Positions 41,414 through 61,192 are shown, numbered from the stretch's first letter. The stretch is 64,000 nucleotides of DNA from an uncultured bacterium (GCA_963727525.1 CAVSGO010000006.1:46906-110905), one strand, 5' to 3'. Made by a program: numbers and translations. The notes: a model not told the origin generated them from the letters alone.

Positions 41414-41414
41414 G

Positions 41415-42296: not shown

Positions 42297-42298
42297 GA

Positions 42299-43132: not shown

Positions 43133-43139
43133 GGTTGCC

Positions 43140-44226
43140 TCATCGCCGCGCGGCCATCATCGCATCGAAGACGCCGCCGTCGACGAAATGCGTCTGCTGC
43201 GCGACTGTCCAGCCACCGAAGACATCATCGACGCTCATGCGCTGCAACGCCGGGAAGCGCGCGAGATCGGCCGGGTCGGCATTCGTGGGATCGACCGGCC
43301 GGTAGTAATGCTTCGCTGCGAGCCGCTGAGCGACGGGCGAGTACAGCCACTGCAGGTAGGCCGTGGCCACCGCACGCGTGCCGTGCTTGTCGGCCCACGA
43401 ATCCACGAGGGCCACGGGCGGTTCCGCGAGGATGCTCACCGATGGCACGACGATGTCGACGCGGTCGGGGCCGAACTCGTTGACCGCGAGAAATGCCTCG
43501 TTCTCCCAGGTGAGGAGCACGTCGCCGATGCCGCGCGCCACGAATGTGCCGGTGGCGCCTCGAGCCCCCGAATCGAGCACCGGCACGTGGGCGTAGAGCG
43601 CGGCGACGAAGGCGCGCGCGCTGTCCTCGGCCGCGGCAACGGCGCCGGCGGCGGCCGTGTCGTGCAGCCGTGCGAGGTCGCCGAGCTGCCGCTGCAGCGC
43701 CGCCGCCCACGCGGCGAGGTAGATCCAGCGCGCACCCCCCGAGGTCTTGGGATTGGGGGTGATCACCGTCACGCCCGGCGCGAGCAGGTCTGCGCCAATC
43801 GTGGATGCCGCGGGGATTCCCCTTGCGCACCAGGAACACCACGGTCGAGGTGTACGGCGTGCTGCCGTTCGGTAGCCGCTGTCGCCAGTTCCCGGGCAAG
43901 GTGCCGGCATGTGAGGCGATCGCGTCGATATCGTGGGCCAGCGCCAGCGTCACGACGTCGGCTTCCAGCCCCTCGATCACGGCCCGCGCCTGGGCGCCGG
44001 AGCCGCCATGCGACATCGCGATCGTCACTGTCTGCCCGGTCTCCAGCCGCCAGTGCTCCGCGAACGTCGAGTTGACGTCCCTGTAGAATTCGCGGGTCGG
44101 ATCGTAGGAGACATTGAGCAGGGTGAGCGGCCTTTCCGATGCCGCGGCGGGCTCGCTCCGACGGCACCCGATCGGGAATGTCATGATGGCCAGCAGCGCC
44201 AGGATCATGAGGGATGCGCGGGACAT
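43140..44226 (-). pseudogene. sbp: Periplasmic sulfate/thiosulfate-binding protein (Sbp/CysP), split by a +1 frameshift near nt 43785-43803
   Basis: N-terminal part (ATG 44226, AGGAGG RBS, lipoprotein-like signal [21 protein letters not shown] ... [19 protein letters not shown]) lies in the ORF 43225..44364 frame. The C-terminal part ([29 protein letters not shown] ... LTWENEA ... FGGW) lies in the ORF 43140..43910 frame. Removing one base from tggCgcagacctg restores ...HDWADLLAPG.... Confidence 0.75.
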
Positions 44227-44263
44227 GTTGCCTCCTTCCGGTGGGTTCTCCAGCAGATAAGAG

Positions 44264-44278
44264 GCAAATGATGGGCCA
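44264..44278 (-). promoter_or_regulatory. Sigma-54-type promoter candidate TGGCCCatcatTTGC (GG-N10-GC) 38 nt upstream of sbp
   Basis: Minus-strand reading of 44278..44264 gives TGGCCC-N5-TTGC, which matches the TGGCAC-N5-TTGC consensus at the -24 GG, the -12 GC and the TTGC element. Confidence 0.45.
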
Positions 44279-44382
44279 ATCGCATGATGATATACAACTT
44301 GTTGCCGCACAATAAATAGCTTATTTAGTATGCCGTATACCGTGAAATGTGGTAGCTTTGCCATGAAATATCATGGTATGAT

Positions 44383-44400
44383 CCGTGATATATCACGGAG
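44383..44400. promoter_or_regulatory. Perfect 18-bp palindrome TCCGTGATATATCACGGA (with nearby CCATGA-aata-TCATGG, 44361-44376) in the divergent sbp / sigma-54-activator intergenic region; candidate activator (UAS) or autoregulatory site
   Basis: Seen directly. Lies about 105 bp upstream of the putative sigma-54 -24 element of sbp and abuts the RBS of the activator gene. Confidence 0.45.
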
Positions 44401-44410
44401 GAGGCCTGCC

Positions 44411-45976
44411 ATGGCGACCGATTCCTGGCTGCTCGACGTCTGGCGAGAAGCCTGCCAGCATCTTGACCTCGGCGAGCTGATCGCGCGGCTCGCCCCGCTC
44501 GTCAAATGCCGCTGGCCCGTGAGCGCGGTCGCCGTGGCGCGCCAGTCGCCCGACGCCAAGGTGATGGAACTTGTCGGCCCGCTTGGCGACGGCGACGTCG
44601 CGGCGGACCAGCGCCGCGAGCTGACGTCTGCCGATTCCCGCTTGCTCGGCGCCTGGCTTGCACAGGGGCAGACGGAGATCATCGCGAACGACGGCCGGGT
44701 GCCGTCCGGTGTGGCCACGCTTCTGCCCGCTGCGTACACCCGGGCCGGTACCGTCATCGCGCCGCTCACCTCGTCCGATGAGGCGCGCGGGCTACTCGTG
44801 GTCGTACCCGCGGATTCCGAGGCGCCGCACGGGGTGCTTCCGGCTGTCGAGCAGCTGCGGGCTCCGCTCGCCGCAGCCCTGGCGAACGACCGTCGGTTGC
44901 GTGAGCTGGTGGATCTGCGCCGGGCTGCCGAAGCCGATCGGCGATCCTTGCTCACGCGTCTCGGCCGCGACGAGTTGCTCGAGACCATCGTCGGCGCCGA
45001 CGGCGGCCTGCGTGGTGTGATGGCACGCGTCGCCATGGTCGCGGCGTCGGACATACCGGTGCTGATCCTGGGCGAGACCGGTGCCGGCAAGGAGGTCGTG
45101 GCGCGCGCCGTGCACGCGCGGTCGCGACGCGCGCACGGGCCGTTCACGCGCGTGAACTGCGGTGCCATCCCGCCAGAGCTGGTGGATTCCGAACTCTTTG
45201 GCCACGAGAAGGGGAGCTTCACCGGCGCCATGTCCCGCCGCCGCGGCTGGTTCGAGCGCTCGGACCAGGGCACCCTGTTGCTCGACGAGGTCGGCGAACT
45301 GCCGAAAGCGGCGCAGGTGCGGTTGCTACGAGTGATCCAGGACGGCATGCTCCAGCGTGTGGGGGGGGAGTCGATGCTCCGGGTCGACGTGCGGATCATC
45401 GCAGCCACCCATGCCGATCTTGCCGCCATGGTGCAGCGCGGCGAGTTTCGCGAGGACCTGTGGTACCGGCTCGCTGTTTTTCCGCTGGTGTTGCCTCCCC
45501 TGCGTGAACGGACCGAGGATATTCCCGACCTCGTTGCCATGCTCGCGCGACGCGCCTCGCGACGATTCGGCCTCAGGCCGCAGCGACCGACGGCTGCCGA
45601 TCTCGCCCTGCTTGCGGCCTATCCGTGGCCGGGAAACGTCCGGGAACTGGGTTCGGTAATCGATCGTGCCGCCATCCTGGGCGATGGCAAGTGTCTGGAT
45701 ATCGCGAAGGCGCTCGGCAGCGGCGGTCCCGGCATGCACGCGGGGGCATGGGCGTCGTCGCCACGTGCGACGAGCGCGACGCCCGAGGCGCTCGCGTCGC
45801 TGGACGCGGCGATGGCTGCGCACATTCGCGCCGCCCTCATTGCCTGCGATGGTCGTATCGAGGGGGCGCAGGGCGCGGCCGTTCTCCTGTGCATCAACCC
45901 GCACACGCTGCGCGCGCGCATGCGAAAGCTCGGTCTCGAGTGGGCCCGATATCGGGTCCATCGATCCACAGGCTGA
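44411..45976 (+). CDS. Sigma-54-dependent transcriptional activator (bacterial enhancer-binding protein): N-terminal GAF-like sensor, AAA+ sigma-54 interaction domain, C-terminal HTH
   Basis: ATG 44411 with GGAGGAGG RBS. Walker A GETGAGKE, sigma-54 contact motif GSFTGA, RVDVRIIAATH, PWPGNVREL, C-terminal HTH (AQGAAVLLCINPHTLRARMRKLGL). Confidence 0.85.
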   Translation: MATDSWLLDVWREACQHLDLGELIARLAPLVKCRWPVSAVAVARQSPDAKVMELVGPLGDGDVAADQRRELTSADSRLLGAWLAQGQTEIIANDGRVPSGVATLLPAAYTRAGTVIAPLTSSDEARGLLVVVPADSEAPHGVLPAVEQLRAPLAAALANDRRLRELVDLRRAAEADRRSLLTRLGRDELLETIVGADGGLRGVMARVAMVAASDIPVLILGETGAGKEVVARAVHARSRRAHGPFTRVNCGAIPPELVDSELFGHEKGSFTGAMSRRRGWFERSDQGTLLLDEVGELPKAAQVRLLRVIQDGMLQRVGGESMLRVDVRIIAATHADLAAMVQRGEFREDLWYRLAVFPLVLPPLRERTEDIPDLVAMLARRASRRFGLRPQRPTAADLALLAAYPWPGNVRELGSVIDRAAILGDGKCLDIAKALGSGGPGMHAGAWASSPRATSATPEALASLDAAMAAHIRAALIACDGRIEGAQGAAVLLCINPHTLRARMRKLGLEWARYRVHRSTG

Positions 45977-46044
45977 ACTCCCATGTTTTTTGTAAGTGAT
46001 GTATGTCTTTATATTTACACGAATCGGCACATGCGATTTTATTT

Positions 46045-46058
46045 GTTAAATTTTTAAC
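46045..46058. promoter_or_regulatory. AT-rich palindrome GTTAAA-tt-TTTAAC within the AT-rich promoter island (45980-46124) upstream of the cytochrome-rnf gene string
   Basis: Perfect 6-bp arms with a 2-nt spacer. The island also contains TTTACA-N17-TTTTAT (46012-46040) as a possible sigma-70-like promoter. Confidence 0.25.
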
Positions 46059-46124
46059 CTATGACTAGGTTACATCACGAGCACGTTCCCTGAACACAGG
46101 CCGCACACGATGCGAGGTGGTCTC

Positions 46125-46598
46125 ATGACTTCTGACACGCCCTCCAATGGCGACCACTGGGAATGCATGGTCTGGGAGAAGCACCGGTACAATGACCGTA
46201 CTGTCATCAAATCCGGTTCCTATCTCCGCGCATCCTGTCCCTACTGCGCGGAATGTCTGATTGCCGAGGGCATGATCCGCCTCGCGTCCGTCTCGCGAGA
46301 CGGGCGCAAGGGCTGGGTGGAACTGAGTCCGTACCTCAACGTCTTCGAGCGGCGCAGCGACATCCACCTTTCCGAGACCGCCGACTTTTCGGACCTGGTC
46401 TGTCCCCACTGCCACCGCTCGCTCAGGGTCCCGGAGCGCAAGTGCGGACGCGGCGATGCGAGCGTCGCCGTGGTGATGGTGGGCATCTCCACGATCAACG
46501 TGCCCTTCTACTTCTGCATGCAGACGGGCTGCACATGGCACCTCATCGATCCAGAGGACGAGCACCGGATCATCCTGGACGACAGCCTGGAATGGTGA
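46125..46598 (+). CDS. Cys-rich hypothetical protein (paired CxxC zinc-ribbon-like motifs, including CPHCH) (157 aa)
   Basis: ATG 46125 with GAGGTGG RBS. CPYCAEC ... CPHCHRSL ... CMQTGC. No signal peptide. First gene after the AT-rich island. Confidence 0.6.
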   Translation: MTSDTPSNGDHWECMVWEKHRYNDRTVIKSGSYLRASCPYCAECLIAEGMIRLASVSRDGRKGWVELSPYLNVFERRSDIHLSETADFSDLVCPHCHRSLRVPERKCGRGDASVAVVMVGISTINVPFYFCMQTGCTWHLIDPEDEHRIILDDSLEW

Positions 46599-46602
46599 CG
46601 CG

Positions 46603-47256
46603 ATGCCCTTCGCTGGACGCGATGATCATGGTTCGCCGGTTCGCGGTCACGCTCGCAGCAATGCGGTGCTGATCGTCGTTGCGGTCGTGGCCGCCGCCGT
46701 CGCCGCCGGCGGATACTTGCGGGGGGCGCCGCCGCCGACGACTGATCGCATCTACCTGCGCAGCATCGGCGGCGCGGTTGTCTTCGGACATGCGGAGCAC
46801 CAGGCTCGGGTCGCAAGCTGCCTGCCCTGCCACCATGAACTGATCCTGGGCGATCCGATCGCCTGCGCCACGTGCCACGATGCGGATGTCACGTTCGATC
46901 TGGCGTCGCATGACGAACTCGTGCAGATCGATGGCCACACCTGCGACGGCTGTCACGCGAGCGCAGATGCCACGGGTGCGCGCAACTGCCGCGCCTGCCA
47001 TGCCTCTGAGGTCGAAGGCGCAACGAGCGTGCATGCCTGCAGCGATTGCCACGATGATGCGACATACGGGCCGGCGACGTTGCCGCACGCGAGTCTCGTG
47101 ACCATCGAAGGACACAGTTGCGATGGGTGCCACACACCTCGCGCCCTTGCAGAAGCGTACCACGCGACCTGCAACGGCTGTCACCTGCGAGCCGCCCCGC
47201 AGCGATTCGCTGCAGCCGATGGTGGCGCGACGTGCGCAGCGTGCCACCTGAAGTGA
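46603..47256 (+). CDS. Membrane-anchored octahaem c-type cytochrome (cytochrome c3-like) immediately upstream of rnfC
   Basis: N-terminal TM/signal-anchor AVLIVVAVVAAAVAAGG. Eight CxxCH motifs (CLPCH, CATCH, CDGCH, CRACH, CSDCH, CDGCH, CNGCH, CAACH) in 217 aa. Confidence 0.85.
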   Translation: MPFAGRDDHGSPVRGHARSNAVLIVVAVVAAAVAAGGYLRGAPPPTTDRIYLRSIGGAVVFGHAEHQARVASCLPCHHELILGDPIACATCHDADVTFDLASHDELVQIDGHTCDGCHASADATGARNCRACHASEVEGATSVHACSDCHDDATYGPATLPHASLVTIEGHSCDGCHTPRALAEAYHATCNGCHLRAAPQRFAAADGGATCAACHLK

Positions 47257-47272
47257 AACGCGGAGGTCGATC

Positions 47273-48577
47273 GTGAGCTTGCTCAACCTGTTCAAGACAC
47301 CCGCGGCTCGCGTCCCCCGCGTGGCGCTCGGGTCCACGGCGATCGTCGACCTGCCCGATCCCGACCACGTGGTGATCCCCCTCGAGTATCCCGGTCAGAT
47401 TCGCTTTCGACCCGCGGTCCAGGCCGGAGACTCCGTGGCGCGCGGGCAGGTGATCGGCCGTTCCGAACTGGGCAACTGCGTGCACGCCTCGATCAGCGGG
47501 CTGATCAAGGAGATCCGGACAATCTGGTCGGCTAGTGGCTACCACGTTCCGGCGGTCGTCATCACCCGCGGCGACGCACCCGCGCTCACACCCACCGAGT
47601 GCCTCGGACAGTGCGGGCTCGATCTGGCCTCGGCGACACGCATCGCATTGCTCAAAGCGGGCGGTGTGATTTCCCCGTGGACCACGCCGGGCCAGGACCA
47701 CCGAGAAGCGGACATCGGCGAGTTCCCGGACATCCAGCACATCGTCGTGAAGGGGCTGAACGAGGAGCCCACGATCGTAAATTTCGAGCTGCTCATGGTG
47801 GAGGGAGCCGGCAGGCTGAAGGACGCGTTGCAACGGCTGTGCGATTTCGTGCCCCGCGCCACGATATGGTTGACGGTGGCGCGCCGCCTCGAGCCGTGGG
47901 CGCGCGAGACCTTCGAGGACCTCGTACGCGTGGTGGGCCTCGCCGAGGAGTATCGCCATCGCATCGAGCGGATGGTGGTGCCGCGCGTGACGGGCGTGGC
48001 CATTGCGAATACCGAGGCGTTCCGGTCGCGCGGTGTCGCCGTGCTCTCCGTCGAACACCTGCTGACCGCGGCCGATGCGCTTGCCGGCAAGCCATTCACG
48101 CACAAGACGGCGACGATAGCCGGAGGCCTTCTGCGCGAGCCGGTGACCGTGCGCACACCGGTCGGAACGACGATCGGGACCTTGCTCGCGAGCCAGGGCA
48201 TGAGCGCCGCCGACTACGGTCGTCTGATCGTCGGCGGCCCGATGCGCGGCATGACGCAGTATACCGACGAGACGCCGTTGAGCAAGTTCCAGCACGGCGT
48301 ATTGGTGATGGCAGCGTCCGAGCTGCCGGCGGAGCTGAACCGTACCTGTGTGAACTGCGGCCGCTGCACGCGCGCCTGTCCCGTGCACCTGCAGGTGCAC
48401 CTCATCGGGCGTTGCGTGGAGTACAACCTGCTTGCCGAAGTGCCTTCGCGCCACCCAGAGGCCTGTCACGAGTGCGGGCTCTGCGCCTTCGTCTGTCCGG
48501 CTCATCGGCCCCTGGTGCAGATGATGAAGATCGCCAAGCGTGCGGGCGTGACCGAGACGAGCGAGGCGGTGGCATGA
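47273..48577 (+). CDS. rnfC: Rnf electron-transport complex subunit C
   Basis: GTG 47273 with GGAGG RBS. RnfC_N-like N-terminus, IVGGPMRG, C-terminal 2x[4Fe-4S] (CVNCGRCTRACP, CHECGLCAFVCP). Not evaluated: no canonical GGxGFP FMN/NADH motif was seen by eye. Confidence 0.8.
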   Translation: MSLLNLFKTPAARVPRVALGSTAIVDLPDPDHVVIPLEYPGQIRFRPAVQAGDSVARGQVIGRSELGNCVHASISGLIKEIRTIWSASGYHVPAVVITRGDAPALTPTECLGQCGLDLASATRIALLKAGGVISPWTTPGQDHREADIGEFPDIQHIVVKGLNEEPTIVNFELLMVEGAGRLKDALQRLCDFVPRATIWLTVARRLEPWARETFEDLVRVVGLAEEYRHRIERMVVPRVTGVAIANTEAFRSRGVAVLSVEHLLTAADALAGKPFTHKTATIAGGLLREPVTVRTPVGTTIGTLLASQGMSAADYGRLIVGGPMRGMTQYTDETPLSKFQHGVLVMAASELPAELNRTCVNCGRCTRACPVHLQVHLIGRCVEYNLLAEVPSRHPEACHECGLCAFVCPAHRPLVQMMKIAKRAGVTETSEAVA

Positions 48578-49608
48578 TCCCGACGATCATCGACACGCGG
48601 CCGGCGACCGACCAGGCGCCCAGGAACGATCGCGACGCTCAGCACGACCACAAGCTGAGCGTAGCCGAGGGGCCGCACTGGCACGACGGCAGTTCGCTCA
48701 CGCGGACACAGATTCTCTGGCTTATGGCGCTGCTTCCCGCGGGCGTGGCGAGCGGCGTCATGCTCGGCGCACCGGCGTTGCGGGTGATGGCGCTGGCGGT
48801 CGCGGCCGCGATCGCCTTCGATGCCCTCGCCAACCGCGTGATGTCCCTGCCGGATGCCACCTCGAACGGCAGCAGCATCACTCTCGGCCTGCTGCTCGCC
48901 TTTCTCCTGCCGGTCGACGCGCCGTGGTGGTTGGTGGTCGTGGGCTGTTTCCTGACCATCGTGATCGGCAAGAAGCTCTTCGGTGGCTGGGGCGGCTATC
49001 CCGTGCATCCGGTGGCGCTGAGCTACGCGATGCTCGTCGTGTCGTGGCCAGCGCGGATGGACGTCACGGCGTCGCTCGTGCACGCGACCTGGCGCGCCGC
49101 ACCGGTGGAACCTCTACGGCTCGTCAAGACCCTCGGCGCGGCCGCCGCCGCGCAATACGACCTCCACGACCTCCTGCTCGGCGTGCAGACCGCTGGCGTG
49201 GGCGACGCGATGGTGCTGTGGCTTCTCGCGGGCGGTGTCTTCCTATTCCTCGTCCGGCAGGTGCCCTGGCAGATTCCGATCGGTGTCGTCGCCGGCGTGG
49301 TGCTCTGCGCCTGGCTGCTCGGCATGGCCGACCCCGGGCGCACGGCCACGCCGGCCTTCCAGCTCCTGGCGGGCGGTACGGTGTTCATGGCGTTCTTTCT
49401 GGCGCCGGAGCACACGACATCGCCGGTCAACCCGTGGCCGATGTTCCTCTACGGGTGGTTGGGCGGCGTGTTGCTCGTGCTGATCCGCGCGTTCTCGAGT
49501 CACATCGACGGCACGGTATTCGCCGTGCTGCTGATGAACGTCGCCTGTCCGCTGCTCGACCGCCTGGGGCCCCGGATCGTCGGCCTGGAGGTGCCACGCG
49601 ATGCGTGA
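48574..49608 (+). CDS. rnfD: Rnf complex subunit D (NqrB-like integral membrane subunit)
   Basis: ATG overlaps the rnfC stop (ATGA). Polytopic membrane profile with the conserved GGWGGYPVHPVAL-type segment and the FMN-attachment-region context (TSPVNPWP). Confidence 0.8.
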   Translation: MIPTIIDTRPATDQAPRNDRDAQHDHKLSVAEGPHWHDGSSLTRTQILWLMALLPAGVASGVMLGAPALRVMALAVAAAIAFDALANRVMSLPDATSNGSSITLGLLLAFLLPVDAPWWLVVVGCFLTIVIGKKLFGGWGGYPVHPVALSYAMLVVSWPARMDVTASLVHATWRAAPVEPLRLVKTLGAAAAAQYDLHDLLLGVQTAGVGDAMVLWLLAGGVFLFLVRQVPWQIPIGVVAGVVLCAWLLGMADPGRTATPAFQLLAGGTVFMAFFLAPEHTTSPVNPWPMFLYGWLGGVLLVLIRAFSSHIDGTVFAVLLMNVACPLLDRLGPRIVGLEVPRDA

Positions 49609-50206
49609 AATCGGTCGCCTGGTGCTGGTGCTCGGGCTCATCGGCGTGGTGAGCGCGTCGTCGCTGGCATACGTGCGCACGACCCTCGCTCCCCGGATCG
49701 AGCGGCAGAACGATTTCTACGTGCGCGGGCCGGCGCTCGAACGGCTGTTCCAGCAGCCGGCACGCACTCTCCTGGGCAACAAGGTGACGCTGGATGCGGC
49801 CGGCACCCGCTACCTGATCTTCTTTCGGCGAGTGGACGGCGACGTCACGGGTCTCGCCGTGGAAGCGCCTGGCCACGGCGGCTACGCCGGCGACGTGGTG
49901 ATGATGGTCGGACTCGATCTTGTCACCGAACGGATGCTCGGCGTGGAGATCGTCTCGCACGGCGAGACCCCGGGCGTGGGTGCCCGGATCGAGAGACCGA
50001 CATTCCGCAAGCAGTGGCGAGGCTTGCCGATGGACGACACGCTGAATCTGCGCACTGCGGGCGGCAACATCGACGCGATCAGCGGTGCCACCTTCTCGTC
50101 GCGTGCCATGATCGACGGCACCAACCAGGTCGATGGCCCTGATGCGGGATCACAGGGCCGACATCCTGGCGCGCATAGCCGGGAACTAGACGGAGAGCGG
50201 TCATGA
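49601..50206 (+). CDS. rnfG: Rnf complex subunit G (FMN-binding); last ~20 codons possibly frameshifted
   Basis: N-terminal TM anchor ([19 protein letters not shown]), FMN-binding-domain motif [14 protein letters not shown]. From about nt 50130 the +1 frame reads ...[18 protein letters not shown] (protein-like, RnfG-like C-terminus), whereas the called frame reads [23 protein letters not shown]. Confidence 0.7.
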
Positions 50207-50815
50207 CGTTCAGGCAGGCACTCACTCACGGGTTCTGGCGAGACCTGCCGCCTTTCCGGCTGGTGCTTGGCCTCTGCCCGGCTCTGGCCGTCACCTCGGC
50301 CGCGCCCAACGGGCTGGGCATGGGGTTGGCGGTGACCTTCGTGCTGATCTTCTCCAACATGTTCATCTCGCTGCTGCGCCGGGTGATCCCCGAGCGAGGT
50401 ACGGATCGCCAGCTACATCGTGGTGATCGCCAGCCTCGTGGTGCTCGTGGAACTGGGCATGAAGGCGTTCTTCTTCTCGCTCTCCCAGCAGTTGGGGATC
50501 TACATCCCGCTCATCGTCGTGAACTGCATCCTGCTGGGGCGCGCCGAGGCGTTCGCCTCGCGCAATCCTGTGCTGCTGTCCGTGGCCGACGGGGTGAGCG
50601 TGGGGCTGGGCTACACGGTCTCGCTCACGTTGATGGCGTCGGTGCGCGAGGTCCTGGGCGCCGGCACGTGGTTCGGCCATACAGTGTTCGGACATGGTTT
50701 CGAGCCCTTCGGTTTCATGGTCAGGGCGCCGGGGGCGTTCCTCTGCCTGGGCCTGCTCCTCGGACTGATGAATGCCTGGAGCCGCAAGCGCGGCGAGTTC
50801 TTCGTGCAGACGTGA
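50203..50815 (+). pseudogene. rnfE: Rnf complex subunit E, interrupted by a +1 frameshift at about nt 50392-50404
   Basis: ATG 50203 (GGAGAG RBS): [64 protein letters not shown], then junk in-frame. The conserved continuation (E)[43 protein letters not shown]... is in the next frame (ORF 50420..50815). Removing one G from gagcgaGgtacgg joins them. Confidence 0.8.
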
Positions 50816-50829
50816 CGGGAGACCGTGCC

Positions 50830-51405
50830 ATGAACCTGATTCTGCTGACCGTGAGTGCGATCTTCGTACACAACATCCTGCTGGCGCAATACCTGGGCAA
50901 CTGCCCGTTCTGCGGCGTATCGAAGAGGATCGAAACCGCGACCGGCATGGCGGTGGCCGTGGTATTCGTGACCACTCTGGCGTCGATCTTCACCTGGGGC
51001 ACGTATCACCAGATTCTCGTGCCATTGCACCTGGAGTACCTGCAAACGCTGGTCTTCATCCTGGTGATCGCGGCCCTCGTGCAGTTCGTGGAGATCTTCC
51101 TCAAGAAGAAGAGCCGTTCCCTCTACAACGCGCTCGGGATCTACCTGCCACTGATCACCACGAACTGCGCCGTGCTGGGGATCGCGTTGCTCAATATCAA
51201 GAACAACTTCGGCTTCGTGCACATGGTGGTGTATTCCGCCGCCAGCTCGGCGGGATTCGGCCTTGCCATCGTGCTGTTCGCCGGGGTGCGCGAGCGCCTC
51301 TTCCTGTCGCCGGTGCCGCGGTCCATGCAGGGGACGGCGATCGCCCTCGTCACGGCCGGCATCATGTCGCTCGCGTTCCTGGGGTTCGCGGGCATGGTCG
51401 AGTAG
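50830..51405 (+). CDS. rnfA: Rnf complex subunit A
   Basis: ATG 50830. [27 protein letters not shown]...[19 protein letters not shown] (RnfA/RnfE family signature). Confidence 0.85.
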
Positions 51406-51420
51406 CCACGGAGACGCACC

Positions 51421-53511
51421 ATGTGGATCCCCGCTGTCGTCCTCGGAGGTATCGCCGCGATCGCGGCGGTGGTGCTGGGCATTGCGGCGCGCGTCTTCCA
51501 CGTTCAGGAAGATCCGCGGATCAAGGCCGTCAATGACCTGCTCGCCGGCGCCAACTGCGGGGGCTGCGGCTACGCGGGCTGCGTCGCCTGTGCGGAGGCG
51601 ATCGTCCGCGGCGAGGTGGAGCCCAACGCATGCGTGGTCGGTCAGGCCGATGTGGCGCGCGCCGTCGCCTCGTTTCTGGGCATGGAACTGGCCGACACGG
51701 AGCCGCAGATCGCGTGCCCCGACTGCCAGGGAGGGTTGCGCGCCTCGCGCAAGTACGCCTACGCCGGCTTTGACGACTGCCGCGCTGCTATGCTCTATTT
51801 CCACGGCCCCGTGTCATGCCAGCACGGATGCCTCGGGCTGGGCACCTGCATCCGCGCCTGCAAGTTCGGGGCGATCACGATGGGGCCCGCCGGGTTGCCC
51901 CTCTTCGATCCTACGCGCTGCGTGGCCTGCGGCGCCTGCGCTCGCGCTTGCCCCAAGGGCATCATCTCGATCATTTCCGAGACGACCAAGATCCTGCACT
52001 GGAATCGCTACACCGAATGCCTGGCCCCGTGCCGGCAGAAGTGTCCGGCGCAGATCAACATCCCCAAGTACATCGAGCACCTGAAGCGCGGCGAGTTCGC
52101 CGAGGCGTTGCTGACGATCAAGGAGAGCAACCCGCTACCGCTCTCCACGGGCCGGGTATGCCCCGAGCCGTGTGCCCTGGCCTGCCGGCGACATATCGGC
52201 GACGAACCGGTAGCGATCAACTATCTCAAGCGCTTCGCGGCCGACTGGGAAATGAGCTCGGGGCGCCGCCTGCACATCCCTGTGCTTCCGGATACCGGCC
52301 GGAAGGTCGCGGTGATCGGAGGCGGGCCAGCCGGACTGTCCGCGGCCTACTTCCTGCGCCGCCTCGGCCACGCCGTCACCATCTATGATCAGATGCCGGC
52401 GCTCGGCGGCATGCTGCGCTACGGCATTCCGGAGTACCGTCTTCCCAAGCGTGTTCTCGACTGGGAGATCGAGGGCATCCTGGCACTCGGCATCCAGGCC
52501 GCGACCGGTGTCGCTCTGGGCAAGGACTTCACCATCGATTTCCTGCGCGCCAATGGTCACGACGCGATCTTCCTCGCCGTGGGTGCATGGCGCGACAATG
52601 GCCTTGGCCTCGAGGACGACGGCGTCTCTGGTATCGTGAGCGGCATCGAGTTGCTGCGGCGCATGCAGACGTCCGCGCCGATCCCCTTACGTGGACACGT
52701 GATCGTGATCGGCGGCGGCAACACCGCCATCGATGCCGCGCGCACCGCCCTGCGAGCCGGCGCGAGTCGGGTGAGCATCGTGTATCGCCGTTCGCGCGAC
52801 GAGATGCCGGCGAATCCGGCCGAGATCGTGGCCGCTGACGAGGAGGGCGTGCGATACCGCTTCCTCAGCGCGCCCAACCGCATCGTATCCGACGCCGGCC
52901 ACGTCACCGGGCTCGAGATTCTGCGCATGGAGCTGGGCGAACCCGATCCCAGCGGTCGGCGAAGGCCCGTGGCGATCGCGGGATCGGAAGAGACGATCCC
53001 GTGCGACCTGATCATCGAGGCCGTGGGCCAGATGCCCGACATCGATTTCCTTGCGGTGCCGGGCATGCCGTCGTTGCCGACAACGCGCTGGAACACGATC
53101 GACGCCAGCGAGGACACGCTACAGACCGATGTGCCCTACATCTTCACCGGTGGTGATTGCTTCACGGGACCCTCGCTCATGGTCAACGCGATCGGTGCTG
53201 GTCGGTATGCGGCACGATCGATCCACTATTACGTGACCGAGGGCAGGATTCCGCCAATCGAGCACCGACAGACCGAACTCATCAGCGACTCGCTCTACGA
53301 GTCCATCGCGGGTGTGGCACCCCGCCCTCGGGTGCACGAGCCCGTCGTGACGCTGCAGGACCGCCTCGGCACTTTCAATGAGGTCGAGGGCACGATCGAC
53401 GAAGAGGATGCCCTCTACGAGGCCGCGCGTTGCCTGCATTGCGGCACCTACTGCTATGACCACGATCTGGAGCAGGAACGTCTGCGGCAGGAGACCGAGC
53501 AGCCGGCGTGA
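51421..53511 (+). CDS. rnfB: RnfB (N-terminal membrane anchor + Fe-S/ferredoxin domains) fused to a GltD/NfnB-like NAD(P)H-dependent FAD oxidoreductase (696 aa)
   Basis: GGAGA RBS. MWIPAVVLGGIAAIAAVVLGIAA, NCGGCGYAGC (RnfB cluster), two 4Fe-4S ferredoxin motifs (CIRACKFGAI / CVACGACARACP); then KVAVIGGGPAGLSAAYFL (FAD GxGxxG) ... VIVIGGGNTAIDAARTA (NAD(P) GxGxxA) ... TGGDC as in glutamate-synthase small-subunit-like flavoproteins. Confidence 0.8.
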   Translation: MWIPAVVLGGIAAIAAVVLGIAARVFHVQEDPRIKAVNDLLAGANCGGCGYAGCVACAEAIVRGEVEPNACVVGQADVARAVASFLGMELADTEPQIACPDCQGGLRASRKYAYAGFDDCRAAMLYFHGPVSCQHGCLGLGTCIRACKFGAITMGPAGLPLFDPTRCVACGACARACPKGIISIISETTKILHWNRYTECLAPCRQKCPAQINIPKYIEHLKRGEFAEALLTIKESNPLPLSTGRVCPEPCALACRRHIGDEPVAINYLKRFAADWEMSSGRRLHIPVLPDTGRKVAVIGGGPAGLSAAYFLRRLGHAVTIYDQMPALGGMLRYGIPEYRLPKRVLDWEIEGILALGIQAATGVALGKDFTIDFLRANGHDAIFLAVGAWRDNGLGLEDDGVSGIVSGIELLRRMQTSAPIPLRGHVIVIGGGNTAIDAARTALRAGASRVSIVYRRSRDEMPANPAEIVAADEEGVRYRFLSAPNRIVSDAGHVTGLEILRMELGEPDPSGRRRPVAIAGSEETIPCDLIIEAVGQMPDIDFLAVPGMPSLPTTRWNTIDASEDTLQTDVPYIFTGGDCFTGPSLMVNAIGAGRYAARSIHYYVTEGRIPPIEHRQTELISDSLYESIAGVAPRPRVHEPVVTLQDRLGTFNEVEGTIDEEDALYEAARCLHCGTYCYDHDLEQERLRQETEQPA

Positions 53512-53541
53512 TCCGGCCGCCATGCAGAAAGGTACGGCAAG

Positions 53542-53949
53542 GTGTATCTACGGACCGCGCGAAATCGCCTGCAGTTCGTGCTCTGGCTCGTCGCGGTGCA
53601 CTCTGCCGCCGTTGCCGTGGGACTCATGGCGCATCCCGTAGCGCTGCTGGAACGCCTCGGCTTCGCCGCCGTGGGCGAGCCGTTCTTCCCGACCCAGGGC
53701 GGCGTCTTCCATCTGGTCATGGCGGTAGGCTACGCGATGGCTGCCTGGTCGCCGGATCGCAACCGCTGCCTGGCCGTGTTCTCGATCGTGGTCAAGGTTC
53801 TGGCCACGCTCTTTCTGCTCGTCTATTGGTTCGTGATCTCTCGTCTACCGGCGGTGCTGCTTTCCGGCCTGGTCGACGGCGCCATGGCGGTAATGATCGC
53901 GCTCGCGTACGCGGCATGGCGACGCGAGCAAGCACGCGAGGTGTCGTGA
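53542..53949 (+). CDS. Small hydrophobic membrane protein of unknown function (135 aa)
   Basis: GTG 53542. Four predicted TM helices (FVLWLVAVHSAAVAVGLMA..., VFHLVMAVGYAMAAW..., VFSIVVKVLATLFLLVYWFVI..., VDGAMAVMIALAYAAW). Stop overlaps the next start (GTGATGG). Confidence 0.5.
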   Translation: MYLRTARNRLQFVLWLVAVHSAAVAVGLMAHPVALLERLGFAAVGEPFFPTQGGVFHLVMAVGYAMAAWSPDRNRCLAVFSIVVKVLATLFLLVYWFVISRLPAVLLSGLVDGAMAVMIALAYAAWRREQAREVS

Positions 53950-55619
53950 TGGACACGAAGCTGCCCGGAATCGTCGTGACCGGCGCCTCCGGCTTCATCG
54001 GTCGGCACTTCCTGGCCAGTGCGGCCGGACGCTACCGGCTGTTCTGTCTGGCGCGCCGCTCGCGCGAGGAGTCGCAGATTCCCGCCTACGAAAACCTGCA
54101 TTGGTCGCAGGTTGACGTTGCGCGCTGGGACGACCTACGCGAGGTCGTGCATTGCGTGAAGAGCCATGGAGGCGCGTCTGCCGTGCTTCATCTCGCCGGC
54201 TACTACGACTTCCACAACATGGAGCACCCCGAATACGAACGCACGAACGTGAAGGGGACCCGCAACGTTCTCAAACTGGCGCGTCAGCTCGGTGTCGGTC
54301 GCTTCATCTTCGCCAGCTCCCTGGCCGCGTGCCGGTTTCCGCCGGCGGGCCTGGCGATCACCGAGGATTCGCCGGCCGACGCCGGATTCGCCTATGCCCG
54401 GAGCAAGCGCGACGCGGAGGAACTCATCTGCGCGCATACCCAATGGATCCCAGCGTCCATCGTGCGCCTCGCTGCGGTCTATAGCGACTGGTGCGAGTAT
54501 CCACCGCTCTATGTCTTCCTGAAGACGTGGCTATCGGACGGCTGGAACGCCTGCATTCTCGGGGGGCGCGGCGAATCGGCGGTGCCGTACATTCACGTCC
54601 AGGATCTGGTGAAGCTCTTTCATGTGATCCTCGAGCGCAGCGCTACGCTGCCGCGACTGGCCGTGTACAACGCCAGCCCGAATTCAGTGGCCAGCCATCG
54701 GGATCTGTTCCAGATGGCGACGCGTGCATACTACGGCACGGACATCCAGCCGCGATGCGTGCCGCGCGTACTGGCGGTACCGGGCGTGTTCCTGCGCTGG
54801 TGGCTCGGCAAGGCCCGAGGGGCGGCGCCGTTCGAGGCGCCCTGGATGATGCGGTATGTGGACGCGCAGCTCCGGGTCGATGCCAACCGCACCCATGCGG
54901 CGCTCGATTGGCGCCCGGCGCCGCGCATGGACGTCGTACGACGGCTACTGGTGATGATCGAGAATATGAAGACGCACTCCGAAATATGGCATCAGCGCAA
55001 TGAGGCGGCTCTACGGCGCGTGGCATACCGTCCCAATCTCGTCATCGCCCGGATCCTCGACGACCTGCGCGAGGAGTTGATCGCCCGGATCGCCGAACGG
55101 GTGAATTCACCGGATCTGGCCTCGCAATTCGCCGGATATCACGACATGGAGCGCGAGACGCTCCGCTGGTACCTCGCGTTGCTCTACCAGGTGCTCGTGG
55201 CGTCCGTGCGCACGCGCGACCGGCAGCTCATCCGGCACTACGCCCAGGTCATCGCCACGAGACGCCAGCAGGAGGGTTTCTCGTCCGACGAAGTGCGCGA
55301 CTTCCTGATCCTGGTGGGCAAGATCGTGACTGAGACGTTGCGCACGCATGCCGAGCTTGTGGGGCACGAGCAGCCCATTCACGACAATGTCGGTCTGGCG
55401 TTCCAGCTCGCGGTCGACGGCATCGAGGACGTCTACGAAGCTCACGAGGCGCTCAATCCGGAATTGATTGCGCGGGGGCAGGGCTTCGCGGAACTGGGCT
55501 CGAACCGCGACCTCGAGCATATGGTTCACCAGCTCCGCGATCTCTGTGGCGATGTGTTCCCGACGCCCGGTGTCCACGCGAACACGGCCACGACGGATCG
55601 TCCCGTCATCGGACCATGA
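53949..55619 (+). CDS. NAD-dependent epimerase/dehydratase (extended SDR) family protein with a ~250-aa C-terminal helical extension (556 aa)
   Basis: ATG 53949 (MDTKLPGIVVTGASGFIGRHF = GxxGxxG Rossmann). YARSKRDAEE (YxxxK). The upstream part of ORF 53508..55619 is read-through. Confidence 0.8.
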   Translation: MDTKLPGIVVTGASGFIGRHFLASAAGRYRLFCLARRSREESQIPAYENLHWSQVDVARWDDLREVVHCVKSHGGASAVLHLAGYYDFHNMEHPEYERTNVKGTRNVLKLARQLGVGRFIFASSLAACRFPPAGLAITEDSPADAGFAYARSKRDAEELICAHTQWIPASIVRLAAVYSDWCEYPPLYVFLKTWLSDGWNACILGGRGESAVPYIHVQDLVKLFHVILERSATLPRLAVYNASPNSVASHRDLFQMATRAYYGTDIQPRCVPRVLAVPGVFLRWWLGKARGAAPFEAPWMMRYVDAQLRVDANRTHAALDWRPAPRMDVVRRLLVMIENMKTHSEIWHQRNEAALRRVAYRPNLVIARILDDLREELIARIAERVNSPDLASQFAGYHDMERETLRWYLALLYQVLVASVRTRDRQLIRHYAQVIATRRQQEGFSSDEVRDFLILVGKIVTETLRTHAELVGHEQPIHDNVGLAFQLAVDGIEDVYEAHEALNPELIARGQGFAELGSNRDLEHMVHQLRDLCGDVFPTPGVHANTATTDRPVIGP

Positions 55620-57078
55620 CCATCTTGCGCGTGAGCACGTGGCCCGCCTGCTCGAGGCGGTACACGTAGACCCCGGCCGGCATCGCGGCGCCTTGGTCGT
55701 CGGTGCCGGCCCACATCGTCACGTGGTGGCCGCCGTCGCGTTCGGCGTCGACGAGGGTCCGTATCCGTCGGCCGCGCTGGTCGAAGATGGCAAGTGTGAC
55801 GTGATCTCCGCCGCGCCGCACGTCGTACCCGATCGTGGTCTGGGGATTGAAGGGGTTGGGAATGTTCTGCTCGAGGGCGATGGCGTTGGGCACGCTGTCG
55901 ATGTTGACCGTGGTGCCCGTGATGCGGTAGACCGTATCGCCGCCGACGTCGACCACGTACAGTTCGCCGAGCCCATCCTGGCCGATCGACGCGAGCCCGC
56001 CGAAGCCGCCCGGCGGCGTGATCTGGTCGGTCCAGTCCGTGACCGGTCCGAATCCGCTCGCTGCCGACCACGCGCCACTCCAGATCTGACCGCTGCAGTA
56101 ATCGGCGAAAAAATACTGGCCGGCAAGCGCCGGTAAGGCGTCGCCGCGATAGACGTAGCCGCCTGAGATGGAGCATCGAAACGGGGTGCCGCCGTGCGAG
56201 TACTCGTGGACCGGCAACACCAGGGTGCCGTCGTTGCAATCACTCGGCGGATCGTAGCAACTCGTGCCTTCCATCAGGTGCCAACCGTAGTTCTCACCAC
56301 CGCTCGAGCTGGCGGGTTGGACGTCGATTTCCTCCAGCTCACCCTGGCCCACGTCGGCGATGTAGAGATCTCCGGTCTGTCGATCGAAGGAGAAGCACCA
56401 GGGGTTGCGCAGGCCGTAGGCCCAGATCTCGTCACGCCCGGGCTGGCCCACCAGGGGATTCGAGGGCGGATTGGTGTAGCCGGGTGCCATGGCCACGTTG
56501 ATGCGCAGGATCTTGCCCAGCAACAGGTCGACATTCTGCGCCCTGTTCTGCGGGTCGCCGGCTGAGCCACCGTCGCCCAGGCCGATGTAGAGCATGCCGT
56601 CCGGCCCGAACTGCAGGCACCCGCCGTTGTGGTTGCTGTACGGCTGTGTCACCGAGATCAGGTGCTCGGCGCTCGTGGGGTCGGCGACGTCGGGATCGGC
56701 GCTGACATGGTAGCGTACGATCTGCGTGTCGCCGTTGACGTCGGTGTAGTCGACGTAGAAGCGACCCGAGATGTCATAGTCGGGCGCGAAGGCGAGCCCC
56801 AGGAGTCCACGTTCGCTCCCCGTGCCGACCAGATCGGAGATGTCGAGGAAGACATCGAGTCGGTTGCCGCCCTGGTCGTAGACCTCGATACGTCCACCCT
56901 GCCGCACGACGAAGAGGCGAGGATCGCCATCCGGCGCGACGAGCCGCACGGGCTGAGCGATGTTCGTGATCACCGGTTCAACCGCAAGGACGGCCGCAGC
57001 CAACTGCGGGCGCATGGTTATCGCAACGAGGATGATAACGAGCGCGGCCAGTACGGGCCGCGAGAATGTGCGTAGCAT
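55606..57078 (-). CDS. Secreted PQQ-dependent sugar dehydrogenase (soluble glucose/sorbosone dehydrogenase family beta-propeller) with a C-terminal FlgD-Ig-like/T9SS-like sorting domain (490 aa)
   Basis: GGAGG RBS. Signal peptide. GLLGLAFAPDY, HNGGCLQFGPDGMLYIGLGDGG, YGLRNPWCFSFD, ENYGWHLMEG (sGDH-family motifs). C-terminus QNIPNPFNPQTTIGYDVRRGGDHVTLAIFDQRGRRIRTL...GVYVYRLEQAGHVLTRKMVMVR. Confidence 0.85.
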   Translation of the reverse strand: MLRTFSRPVLAALVIILVAITMRPQLAAAVLAVEPVITNIAQPVRLVAPDGDPRLFVVRQGGRIEVYDQGGNRLDVFLDISDLVGTGSERGLLGLAFAPDYDISGRFYVDYTDVNGDTQIVRYHVSADPDVADPTSAEHLISVTQPYSNHNGGCLQFGPDGMLYIGLGDGGSAGDPQNRAQNVDLLLGKILRINVAMAPGYTNPPSNPLVGQPGRDEIWAYGLRNPWCFSFDRQTGDLYIADVGQGELEEIDVQPASSSGGENYGWHLMEGTSCYDPPSDCNDGTLVLPVHEYSHGGTPFRCSISGGYVYRGDALPALAGQYFFADYCSGQIWSGAWSAASGFGPVTDWTDQITPPGGFGGLASIGQDGLGELYVVDVGGDTVYRITGTTVNIDSVPNAIALEQNIPNPFNPQTTIGYDVRRGGDHVTLAIFDQRGRRIRTLVDAERDGGHHVTMWAGTDDQGAAMPAGVYVYRLEQAGHVLTRKMVMVR

Positions 57079-58457: not shown

Positions 58458-58469
58458 AAGGGGCGACCA

Positions 58470-61180: not shown

Positions 61181-61192
61181 AGAGGGATCACC

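Follow-up and report, generated by a model that had tools for sequence, protein, structure and literature searches.

A cytochrome-linked Rnf gene cluster of the large-RnfB type, with an RnfB-GltD fusion and a degenerate RnfC, in an uncultured bacterium

A cytochrome-linked Rnf type with a large RnfB has been on record in sulfate reducers since 2016. The architecture analyzed here was described by Wöhlbrand et al. 2016 (Proteomics), whose account Dörries et al. 2016 summarise, as the Desulfobacula toluolica Tol2-type Rnf (PMC5109826). Subunits of the Desulfococcus multivorans Rnf2 have been detected by proteomics, and complexome or proteomic evidence that the Rnf subunits form a membrane complex has been reported only for D. 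toluolica and D. multivorans (PMC5109826). Dörries et al. also stated that RnfC must exchange electrons with some partner besides NAD(H) (PMC5109826). The Rnf of Methanosarcina acetivorans does not use NAD(P), and its electrons go from RnfG to a cytochrome (PMC4023990). The Desulfovibrio enzyme is treated in the literature as a ferredoxin:NAD+ pump. In D. alaskensis, Rnf is required for growth on H2 and for syntrophy, and the operon is induced on H2; ion gradients driven by Fd:NAD+ were not demonstrable in vesicles, and a dhcA mutant was not impaired in fitness on H2, formate or ethanol (PMC4841214). Rnf enzymes are reversible (review PMC12174285). Finally, a stand-alone NfnB-like protein is a working, non-bifurcating ferredoxin:NADP+ oxidoreductase (PMC12221290).

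We analyzed a stretch of 64,000 nucleotides from an uncultured bacterium, here called the window, in which positions 46125-53511 carry, on one strand (+), a Cys-rich gene, a cytochrome gene, rnfC, D, G, E, A and a large rnfB. All six Rnf subunit genes (A, B, C, D, G, E) were assigned by Pfam and NCBIfam, and their order, C-D-G-E-A-B, is the one that the initial annotation had read. The features are the following.

46125..46598, + strand: Cys-rich protein, 157 aa, first gene of the cluster
46603..47256, + strand: octahaem c3/c7-type cytochrome c, 217 aa, with an N-terminal membrane or signal anchor
47273..48577, + strand: RnfC', 434 aa (Pfam RnfC_N and Fer4)
48574..49608, + strand: RnfD', 344 aa, full-length membrane subunit (Pfam NQR2_RnfD_RnfE, E 1.9e-73)
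49601..50206, + strand: RnfG (Pfam FMN_bind; top NCBIfam match RnfG_DVU2794)
50203..50815, + strand: RnfE, in two frames in the window (two Rnf-Nqr halves in different frames)
50830..51405, + strand: RnfA, 191 aa (TIGR01943, 248.7 bits, above the cut-off)
51421..53511, + strand: large RnfB (RnfB-GltD), 696 aa, a single uninterrupted frame
53542..55619, + strand: co-directional pair downstream, encoding a 3-TM protein of 135 aa and an SDR/epimerase-like protein of 556 aa

It is uncertain whether the downstream pair is part of the Rnf system. The pair, or the epimerase-like gene alone (the C-terminal half of whose product is uncharacterised), lies 3' of the large rnfB in loci L082, L087 and L088, and neither was found there in L084 and L086. 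ApbE (rnfF) is absent from the window's cluster, and is encoded divergently, upstream of the cluster, in L084 and L088. An apparent outward-directed porin-cytochrome/CbcL-like module lies 5 kb downstream in the window.

All genes of the initial annotation are present at the coordinates given, but two of them are frameshifted as they stand in the window. An extra C in a CCCC run at 50388 splits rnfE over two frames, and an extra A at 50133 shifts the 3' end of rnfG, whose true stop is near 50189. We compared the window with an independent Logan assembly of run ERR11594398 (L001), which is 99.93% identical over 11.2 kb. Both single-base insertions are missing there, and RnfE (203 aa) and RnfG (195 aa) are intact. 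Among the six substitutions between the two assemblies, four are synonymous, one is Y->F and one is V->I, a pattern that indicates purifying selection. Because L001 lacks the indels, and because the substitutions appear to reflect selection, the indels are probably consensus errors, and not marks of a pseudogene.

The large RnfB begins with a TM helix, which is followed by the RnfB FeS domain (residues 41-72) and a 2x[4Fe-4S] ferredoxin domain (Fer4, 135-183), and then by Fer4_20 (194-280) and Pyr_redox_2 (295-594), as delimited by Pfam. Against solved complexes, the first 190 aa match RnfB (9eri_B, 7zc6_B), and for residues 197-679 the match is to the NfnB-like module found in NfnABC/StnABC (9bov_A, E 1e-134). 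This NfnB/GltD-like module carries the FAD site GGGPAG, a second dinucleotide site (GGGNTAID...VYRRSRDEMPA) and TGGDC, and the C-terminal extension has an invariant Cys triad (C671/C674/C678). More than 120 clusters of full-length homologues exist, in several phyla, and the fusion junction, KGIISIISETTKILHWNxYTECLAPCRQKCPAQ, is near-invariant in full-length homologues of 54-79% identity. Judged by this conservation and by the number of full-length homologues, the in-frame fusion proposed in the initial annotation is genuine and under selection, and is not an assembly artefact. The full-length homologues across phyla and the conserved junction likewise rule out a mis-joined gene as its source.

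The initial annotation had reported no obvious FMN/NADH motif in RnfC, and our analysis agrees. A Pfam scan of RnfC' gave only RnfC_N and Fer4, with no match to Complex1_51K or SLBB at E<=0.01. The canonical G-x-GGA-x-FPT and ECEPY motifs of solved RnfC structures were not found in RnfC': it reads GGVISPWTTPG at the position of GMGGATFPT, and NEEPT at that of ECEPY. Canonical RnfC proteins score 170-190 bits with Complex1_51K, Methanosarcina-like ones 60-83 and those of the fused type 0-25, and the window's RnfC' is below the threshold. In place of the FMN motif stand a new conserved motif, GVxSPWTxPG, and E165. The eight Fe-S Cys, which make up both [4Fe-4S] motifs, are invariant in 39 family members, and an AF2 model (pLDDT 85.5) has RnfC as its top fold match (9eri_C, E 2e-30) and NqrA as its second. 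From motifs and the predicted fold, then, RnfC' is an RnfC that keeps its fold and Fe-S ligands and has lost its FMN/NADH site. Thus neither of the two outcomes named beforehand as contrary to the initial annotation, a canonical RnfC site and a mis-joined gene, was found.

The sites for other cofactors are affected unequally. RnfD' has APVEPL where an alignment places TTATPL of A. woodii RnfD, and is without the Thr of the (S/T)xATPL motif, the carrier of covalent FMN; this xATPL flavinylation motif is missing in all fused-RnfB loci compared. Loss of the flavin-attachment Thr does not prove that RnfD' is free of flavin. In RnfG, the covalent-FMN motif (S/T)GAT is present in the window (ISGATFSS), and SGAT is conserved across loci. 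The two Cys of RnfA and the two of RnfE are ligands of the intramembrane [2Fe-2S] cluster, a role established by solved Rnf and NQR structures, and all four occur in the window and in 60-66 aligned homologues. The RnfD flavin-site loss was not in the initial annotation, which also made no mention of the 2016 description of this Rnf type.

We then considered the 29 fused-RnfB and 26 unfused-RnfB loci among the matches listed in the genome scan. Among these matches, the RnfC GxGGAxFP (NADH/FMN) motif occurs in none of the 29 fused loci versus 22 of the 26 unfused ones. Fisher's test of fusion against motif loss gives p of about 1e-11, a value that ignores relatedness and that shared ancestry inflates. 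A multihaem cytochrome is encoded directly 5' of rnfC in 25/29 fused versus 3/26 unfused loci among the matches listed, and two of those three unfused loci are Methanosarcina (MmcA), the system to which the initial annotation had likened the window's cytochrome. No cytochrome adjoins rnfC in the other four fused loci of this set. The window's clade is found in MAGs labelled Krumholzibacteria, Zixibacteria, Acidobacteriota, Calditrichaceae, Geopsychrobacteraceae and Desulfocapsaceae.

The upstream cytochrome has eight CXXCH motifs and one N-terminal hydrophobic helix (residues 21-39), as expected of the membrane-anchored octahaem protein described initially. It matches Pfam Cytochrome_C7 and, weakly, NCBIfam HmcA and TmcA, and its homologues, the cytochromes encoded in related clusters, include two that have a lipobox-like IGC and no helix. 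The Cys-rich protein does head the gene string, and its length is fixed across 30+ homologue clusters. Its seven invariant Cys (C38/C41, C93/C96, C107, C131, C136) and near-invariant H139 suggest two metal sites; it has no signal peptide. Its gene is strictly linked to clusters of the window's own clade, and none of the 40+ Desulfobacterota loci with this Rnf type carries it.

Given these features, we infer an electron route, ion coupling and an in vivo direction, as well as roles for RnfC', RnfD' and the Cys-rich protein. The most likely function, to which we assign a probability of roughly 0.55, is that of a reversible, ion-coupled NAD(P)H (possibly also ferredoxin):cytochrome c oxidoreductase, whose NAD(P)H-binding part would have moved from RnfC to the flavoprotein fused onto RnfB and to which a multihaem cytochrome would be attached. 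The FAD of the NfnB/GltD-like module would be the site where NAD(P)H gives up electrons or NAD(P)+ accepts them, with VYRRSR suggesting a preference for NADPH. Single electrons would travel along the two clusters of Fer4_20 and then the three of RnfB before entering the [2Fe-2S] that RnfA and RnfE hold within the membrane; they would move on to the covalent FMN of RnfG at the outer face, and from there to the haems of the membrane-anchored cytochrome c, which would link the complex to acceptors in the periplasm or the membrane. Ferredoxin may still trade electrons with the RnfB clusters. Like other Rnf/NQR enzymes, the complex is expected to work in both directions and to couple its reaction to the movement of Na+ or H+. 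The fusion, the RnfC loss and the cytochrome linkage lend support to the cytochrome-coupled, NAD(P)H-linked variant proposed initially, as a predicted function. Also in its favor are the kept RnfG motif and RnfA/E and RnfC ligands alongside the RnfD loss, the likeness of the GltD half to NfnB-like NADPH modules, the M. acetivorans precedent (PMC4023990) and the D. alaskensis vesicle result (PMC4841214). Counting against it are the four fused loci with no cytochrome next to rnfC and the lack of a defect in the dhcA mutant.

It is important to consider other functions for the same genes. That none of the eight Fe-S Cys of RnfC' varies argues for a continued flow of electrons to this subunit, which the route from RnfG to the cytochrome leaves unexplained. 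RnfC' might instead be the cytoplasmic end of the chain: a non-covalent RnfD' flavin would connect the GltD NAD(P)H site with the RnfC' clusters, RnfC' would pass electrons to a cytoplasmic partner (in this clade, the 157-aa two-metal-site protein or a ferredoxin-like carrier is a candidate), and the cytochrome would be a mere side branch. The retained RnfC fold, the GVxSPWTxPG motif and E165 in place of the FMN motif, the strict linkage of the Cys-rich gene to the window's clade and the non-NAD(H) partner required by Dörries et al. (PMC5109826) all fit. However, the Cys-rich gene is missing from the 40+ Desulfobacterota loci, and therefore its product cannot be the general partner; moreover, that product may be a zinc protein or an assembly factor rather than redox-active, and RnfD lacks its flavin-attachment Thr. 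On balance we find this arrangement doubtful. A somewhat better, though still tentative, possibility is that the same machine runs mainly in reverse, with the ion gradient pushing electrons of the periplasmic cytochrome pool, derived from H2, formate or extracellular donors, onto NAD(P)+ and/or ferredoxin. Such operation agrees with the reversibility of Rnf enzymes (PMC12174285) and with the need for Rnf on H2 and in syntrophy, and its induction by H2, in D. alaskensis (PMC4841214). Yet the window's organism and several other lineages of its clade are not known sulfate reducers, the porin-cytochrome/CbcL-like module appears to be directed outward, and the G20 dhcA mutant has no phenotype on H2 (PMC4841214).

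Among solved structures, the GltD half is closest to the bifurcating modules in NfnABC and StnABC, which also share the C-terminal extension with its invariant Cys triad. One could therefore propose flavin-based electron bifurcation at the membrane, in which the NfnB-like FAD would split the two electrons of NADPH, sending one uphill to ferredoxin at the RnfB clusters and the other downhill via the membrane to the cytochrome. We regard this as improbable, as the cluster encodes no NfnA-like or HydBC-like partner to serve as a second, high-potential branch, both routes would be forced through the same Fe-S chain, and stand-alone NfnB-like proteins are simple, non-bifurcating Fd:NADP+ oxidoreductases (PMC12221290). 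The frameshifts in rnfE and at the rnfG 3' end might also be read as signs of an ordinary or dead locus, i.e., either a classical ferredoxin:NAD+ Rnf whose oddities stem from noise in the annotation or from a mis-joined gene, or else a pseudogenised operon. We give this very little credence: both genes are intact in L001, the differences from which point to purifying selection, and conservation across phyla extends to the fusion as well as to the degenerate state of RnfC and RnfD.

Under the preferred reading, a reversible NAD(P)H:cytochrome c oxidoreductase, the donor side would resemble Na+-NQR and the acceptor side the Methanosarcina Rnf-MmcA complex. The flavoprotein module itself aligns end to end (residues 197-679) with its NfnB-like counterparts in 9bov_A, 9n5u_A and 8oh5_C (E 1e-134 to 1e-114), with which it shares the segment VYRR(S/T)xxEMPA, and its best matches listed in a library of 1.8 billion proteins are mostly proteins of 1,100-1,250 aa with an NfnB-like module. 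Unlike in NfnAB, NfnABC and StnABC, the module is tethered to the membrane via RnfB; it has no NfnA, HydBC-like or formate-dehydrogenase-like partner domain, and neither the window's cluster nor related clusters encode an NAD(H)-binding partner of the NfnA or HydBC-like kind. In Na+-NQR the logic is the same, leading from a cytoplasmic NADH flavoprotein through an RnfA/E-type [2Fe-2S] to the FMN of RnfG/NqrC, and NqrA, the RnfC homologue and second-best fold match of RnfC', also lacks an NADH site. However, the flavoprotein of Na+-NQR is an NqrF-type 2Fe-2S/FNR protein, while the window has an NfnB/GltD-like one joined to RnfB; two [4Fe-4S] clusters remain in RnfC' and NqrA has none; covalent FMN is kept in NqrB and not in RnfD'; and the likely acceptor is the cytochrome rather than ubiquinone. 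The cluster does not encode a Na+-NQR, given its GltD/NfnB-like flavoprotein, the eight Fe-S Cys of RnfC' and NCBIfam Nqr models that score far below their cut-offs.

In M. acetivorans, whose Rnf-MmcA is a ferredoxin:methanophenazine oxidoreductase, a multihaem cytochrome gene precedes rnfCDGEAB, the RnfC NADH/FMN site is degenerate, the RnfD xATPL region is missing and the RnfG FMN is kept, all as in the window. Unlike the window's, the short RnfB of Methanosarcina, of about 266 aa, lacks a flavoprotein module, and the Methanosarcina RnfC still scores 60 bits with Complex1_51K versus none for RnfC'. MmcA has 5 haems and about 500 aa, and no relation between the Methanosarcina and window cytochromes was detected by BLASTP at E<=1e-5. 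The Desulfovibrio DhcA-Rnf (D. alaskensis G20, D. vulgaris) is also cytochrome-first, with a decahaem cytochrome directly 5' of rnfCDGEAB, and RnfG_DVU2794 as the top model for the window's RnfG is a further Desulfovibrio likeness; the G20 operon ends with ApbE (rnfF), in contrast to the window's cluster. The suggested parallel with DhcA is supported by four Desulfovibrionaceae loci (L003, L007, L044, L054) that combine the same fused RnfB and a degenerate RnfC with a 10-haem cytochrome in the position of D. alaskensis dhcA.

The nearest likeness lies with the Tol2-type Rnf and D. multivorans Rnf2, which share with the window a small cytochrome c in the cluster and the order cyt-rnfCDGEA-B. 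In the window, the 696-aa RnfB with FeS, Fer4, Fer4_20 and Pyr_redox_2, the cytochrome c gene, and the Pfam domains and Complex1_51K score of RnfC' are those of this type, and by its domain content the cluster is a member of the 'large-RnfB' (Desulfobacula toluolica Tol2-type) Rnf class. Within the class it belongs to a clade separate from Desulfobacterales, with RnfC identities of 23-33% to that group versus 40-65% within its own clade, and the 157-aa Cys-rich gene at the head of that clade's clusters is lacking in Desulfobacterales and Desulfovibrionaceae loci. Relative to the type as described, three points are possibly new: its occurrence outside Desulfobacterota, the conserved Cys-rich gene at the head of the cluster, and the RnfD flavin-site loss.

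The nine genes at 46125-53511 are tightly packed in one direction, and the last of them encodes a large RnfB in which a complete RnfB is joined to a flavoprotein resembling NfnB/GltD. The membrane-anchored, 8-haem character that the initial annotation assigned to the cytochrome is borne out by its motifs. The features that matter for our analysis are as follows.

44330-45976, just upstream of the cluster: gene for a sigma-54-dependent activator
46125-53511 (+), first gene: Cys-rich protein, 157 aa
same cluster (+): cytochrome c, 217 aa, with eight CXXCH motifs and a single N-terminal hydrophobic helix
same cluster (+): RnfC (434 aa), RnfD (344 aa), RnfG, RnfE and RnfA (191 aa)
51421-53511 (+): large RnfB, 696 aa; an ordinary membrane-tethered RnfB (TM helix, PF04060 FeS domain, 2x[4Fe-4S] ferredoxin domain) takes up the first ~190 residues, residues ~194-680 are an NfnB/GltD-type flavoprotein (Fer4_20, GGGPAG, GGGNTAID...VYRRSRDEMPA, TGGDC), and a C-terminal extension has three invariant Cys
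53542-55619, downstream of the large rnfB: 3-TM protein (135 aa) and epimerase-like protein (556 aa)

The G+C content of the window is ~66%, and the nearest relatives bearing a label are Krumholzibacteria MAGs.

The fusion proposed in the initial annotation is genuine. A search of 5.8 billion proteins yielded full-length homologues in more than 120 clusters (90% identity level); they are 690-715 aa long and 54-79% identical, and the junction between RnfB and the flavoprotein ranks among the best-conserved stretches. A mis-joined gene is rejected because the fusion is conserved in the family. Labels of the homologues include Krumholzibacteria, Gemmatimonadales, Thermoanaerobaculales, Zixibacteria, Marinimicrobia, Calditrichaceae and Desulfobulbaceae, the last with the isolate Desulfopila sp. 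IMCC35006. Clustering at 50% identity leaves only about seven clusters of full-length fusions among the best 150 matches; the others of these 150 are NfnABC/StnC-like proteins of 1,100-1,250 aa that match residues ~190-680 only. PDB matches for the N-terminal part are RnfB subunits of solved Rnf complexes; those for residues 197-679 are the NfnB-like modules of NfnABC (C. saccharolyticus and T. sibiricus) and StnABC (S. ovata), with E 1e-134 to 1e-114. A scan of one genome per species, in which the top identity among the matches listed was 54%, found cytochrome-rnfCDGEA clusters that end in the fusion in Desulfosarcina alkanivorans PL12, Desulfocarbo indianensis and Salidesulfovibrio brasiliensis, and also in Pseudodesulfovibrio, Geopsychrobacteraceae and one Fibrobacteraceae MAG. 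Closer contexts were found via contigs encoding homologues.

Gene arrangements vary around this theme. At one locus (L013), the large rnfB is found upstream of cytochrome-rnfCDGEA rather than behind it. Another group of large RnfB-GltD-like genes, which share the domain order and show 30-35% identity across the GltD half, has no rnf neighbours (L029-L038, L041, L043, L046 and L047, e.g., L035:9884-12025; Desulfotignum, Desulfobacula and relatives). These lone genes fit the published cluster of Desulfotignum phosphitoxidans, which consists of cytochrome c and rnfCDGEA without rnfB (PMC4046663).

The suspected loss of the FMN/NADH motif from RnfC also held up. Aligned to solved structures, the window protein has GGVISPWTTPG in place of GMGGATFPT and NEEPT in place of ECEPY, and Pfam finds neither Complex1_51K nor SLBB in it. 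In a panel scored alike, Complex1_51K gives 170-190 bits for canonical RnfC, 60-83 bits for RnfC of Methanosarcina and two Thermodesulfobacteriota, and 0-25 bits for loci with fused RnfB. This motif-less subunit (RnfC') is nevertheless predicted to keep the RnfC fold: its AlphaFold model (pLDDT 85.5) matches RnfC best (E 2e-30) and NqrA second (E 2e-18). Among 39 RnfC' family members, all eight Cys of both [4Fe-4S] motifs are invariant, as are W136 and E165, a Trp and a Glu that are new in the one-time flavin region. In other RnfD and NqrB proteins, covalent FMN is attached to the Thr of the (S/T)xATPL motif. The window's RnfD (RnfD') has lost this Thr, with APVEPL standing opposite TTATPL of A. 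woodii RnfD. The SGAT motif of RnfG is kept, and the four Cys of RnfA/RnfE are present. A divergent ApbE flavin-transferase gene lies upstream of the cluster in Zixibacteria (L084:8498-9523) and Acidobacteriota (L088:6476-7552), which is consistent with RnfG still requiring flavinylation; no ApbE was found among the checked genes adjoining the cluster in the window.

We compared at least 55 loci having rnfC, rnfD and rnfB. Among the loci listed, and in counts uncorrected for shared ancestry, the RnfC motif occurs in 0/29 loci with fused RnfB versus 22/26 with short RnfB, and in alignment the RnfD motif splits the same way. The four short-RnfB exceptions lacking the motif are two Methanosarcina and two Thermodesulfobacteriota loci; the Methanosarcina Rnf does not use NAD(P) (PMC4023990). 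The association with a multihaem cytochrome noted initially is common in this type: a gene for one (4-11 haems) directly precedes rnfC in 25 of the 29 fused loci listed and in three of the 26 unfused ones. In one Krumholzibacteria locus (L082:10479-10886), this cytochrome is cut to 135 aa and four haems; the central part is lost, and of the haem motifs in the window's protein it retains the first, the fourth and the final two.

In the window, rnfE is broken across two frames and the 3' end of rnfG is out of frame. An independent Logan assembly (L001, run ERR11594398; 11.2 kb, 99.93% identity) has neither the extra A at 50133 nor the extra C in the CCCC run at 50388, and encodes intact RnfG (195 aa) and RnfE (203 aa). 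A pseudogenised operon is rejected because this independent assembly is intact. Of the six substitutions that separate the assemblies, four are synonymous, one is Y to F and one V to I, which indicates purifying selection on the genes. Judging from the sequences, consensus errors or strain mixing explain the two indels better than operon decay does, and the clustering of six of the eight differences in 50133-50515 suggests local strain mixing in the consensus.

The Cys-rich protein was rightly singled out as heading the cluster: its gene comes first in every close relative examined, namely in Krumholzibacteria (L082, L083), Zixibacteria (L084), L086, Calditrichaceae (L087), Acidobacteriota (L088) and Geopsychrobacteraceae (L002). 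A profile search found it in 0 of 40+ Desulfobacterales and Desulfovibrionaceae loci. The family has a fixed length of 157 aa, seven invariant Cys (CPxC...CxxC plus C107/C131/C136) and a near-invariant His. Pfam and NCBIfam give nothing significant for it, and databases annotate it only as a hypothetical or generic Zn-ribbon protein. The all-beta model of the protein (pLDDT 76.6) has no significant neighbour in the PDB.

As for regulation, the 130-bp AT-rich gap before the Cys-rich gene (45977-46124) has no sigma-54 site (TGGCAC-N5-TTGCW, at most two mismatches), and matches across the window are at chance level (27 observed versus 25.7 expected). Scans of 45900-55800 for sigma-70 promoters and terminators gave none above shuffled controls. 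A gene for a sigma-54-dependent activator, here PAS-containing, is also found upstream of the Calditrichaceae cluster (L087:4634-6361). In the window, the activator gene directly adjoins a sulfate/thiosulfate ABC transporter operon on the opposite strand (40301-44364 (-); binding protein, two permeases and CysA with a C-terminal regulatory domain). After the large rnfB, a 3-TM protein of ~135-146 aa and/or an SDR/epimerase-like protein of ~550 aa, whose C-terminal ~300 aa are without assignment, is encoded in the window, L082, L087 and L088; this neighbourhood thus recurs in MAGs labelled Krumholzibacteria, Calditrichaceae and Acidobacteriota. Elsewhere, a FlgD_ig-type domain forms the C-terminus of at least five large proteins predicted to be secreted (1951-5118, 13868-15916, 24116-27982, 27969-29444 and 55606-57129). 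Among them are subtilases, an Ig/cadherin-repeat protein and a glucose/sorbosone dehydrogenase-like protein, and their shared ends suggest a common sorting or anchoring signal in the host.

The usual annotation of Rnf is a ferredoxin:NAD+ pump, a reaction that metabolic reconstructions of MAGs adopt. For organisms with the large RnfB, this reaction and its energy yield are probably wrong, because RnfC has lost its NAD(H) site and RnfD its covalent-flavin site, and an NAD(P)H flavoprotein sits on RnfB beside a cytochrome. Dörries et al. 2016 (PMC5109826) summarise the Tol2-type Rnf of Wöhlbrand et al. 2016, named after Desulfobacula toluolica Tol2, with an RnfB of ~700 aa that has NAD+-binding sites and a mode of action that "awaits experimental verification". 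Since this type has been described, our core finding is a new member of a described, uncharacterised type. D. multivorans has two complexes, Rnf1 of the A. woodii type and Rnf2 of the Tol2 type; the latter has a 15-kDa cytochrome, and proteomics detected five of its subunits (PMC5109826). The large-RnfB type goes unmentioned in a 2025 review of RNF/NQR pumps (PMC12174285), and we found nothing relevant on RnfB joined to GltD, glutamate synthase or NfnB under those names. In the literature, the Desulfovibrio Rnf, whose associated cytochrome is DhcA, is treated as a ferredoxin:NAD+ pump, an activity that was not demonstrable in vesicles (PMC4841214). Several uncultured phyla have the type, and so do cultured sulfate reducers (Desulfosarcina alkanivorans, Desulfocarbo indianensis, Salidesulfovibrio brasiliensis and Desulfopila), which opens its mechanism to direct testing.

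The retained sites make an unbroken chain, along which electrons could pass from the FAD of the GltD module via the Fer4_20 clusters, the RnfB clusters and the RnfA/E [2Fe-2S] to the FMN of RnfG at the outer face; a gene for a membrane-anchored cytochrome lies in the same cluster. The canonical continuation (RnfD FMN, RnfC FMN, NAD+) is degraded. We favour, with a probability of roughly 0.55, a reversible, ion-coupled NAD(P)H:cytochrome c oxidoreductase that possibly accepts ferredoxin too. Its donor side would be NQR-like, and its acceptor side would resemble the Rnf of Methanosarcina, with its cytochrome MmcA. The VYRRSR segment is common to the large RnfB and NADPH-dependent relatives and hints that NADPH may be the nucleotide. 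The Desulfobulbaceae branch (Desulfopila, Desulforhopalus) has FRFSR at this position (near window residues 452-460 in the alignment of fused RnfB), which may reflect a differing NADH/NADPH preference.

It is important to consider that the route from FAD through RnfG to the cytochrome leaves over the Fe-S ligands of RnfC'. Because their invariance is unexplained by that route, we keep alive the alternative that RnfC' passes electrons to a cytoplasmic partner. The same complex run in reverse and flavin-based bifurcation are further rivals to the NAD(P)H:cytochrome c reading. Three same-direction genes 5 kb downstream (58458-63814) encode a 526-aa protein without a Pfam match (beta-barrel-like sequence, putative outer-membrane barrel), a 363-aa lipoprotein-like cytochrome with six CXXCH and an MtrC-like domain, and an 899-aa protein in which 19 CXXCH are fused to a cytochrome b561 (Ni_hydr_CYTB) membrane domain. 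The trio looks like machinery for extracellular electron transfer, with a porin-cytochrome conduit and an inner-membrane cytochrome of the CbcL kind; from adjacency, its products are possible downstream partners of the periplasmic cytochrome.

A wider proposal, which we think unlikely, sees the clade represented here (Cys-rich protein, cytochrome c, RnfC'D'GEA and RnfB-NfnB) as a respiratory entry point that needs no quinone and that gene transfer has carried into at least five phyla. Its complex would pump ions as an NAD(P)H:periplasmic-cytochrome oxidoreductase and feed multihaem/extracellular chains directly, and the 157-aa protein would be a new, two-metal subunit docking on the flavin-less RnfC'. 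If true, this would be a second, independent "NQR-like" remodelling of Rnf.
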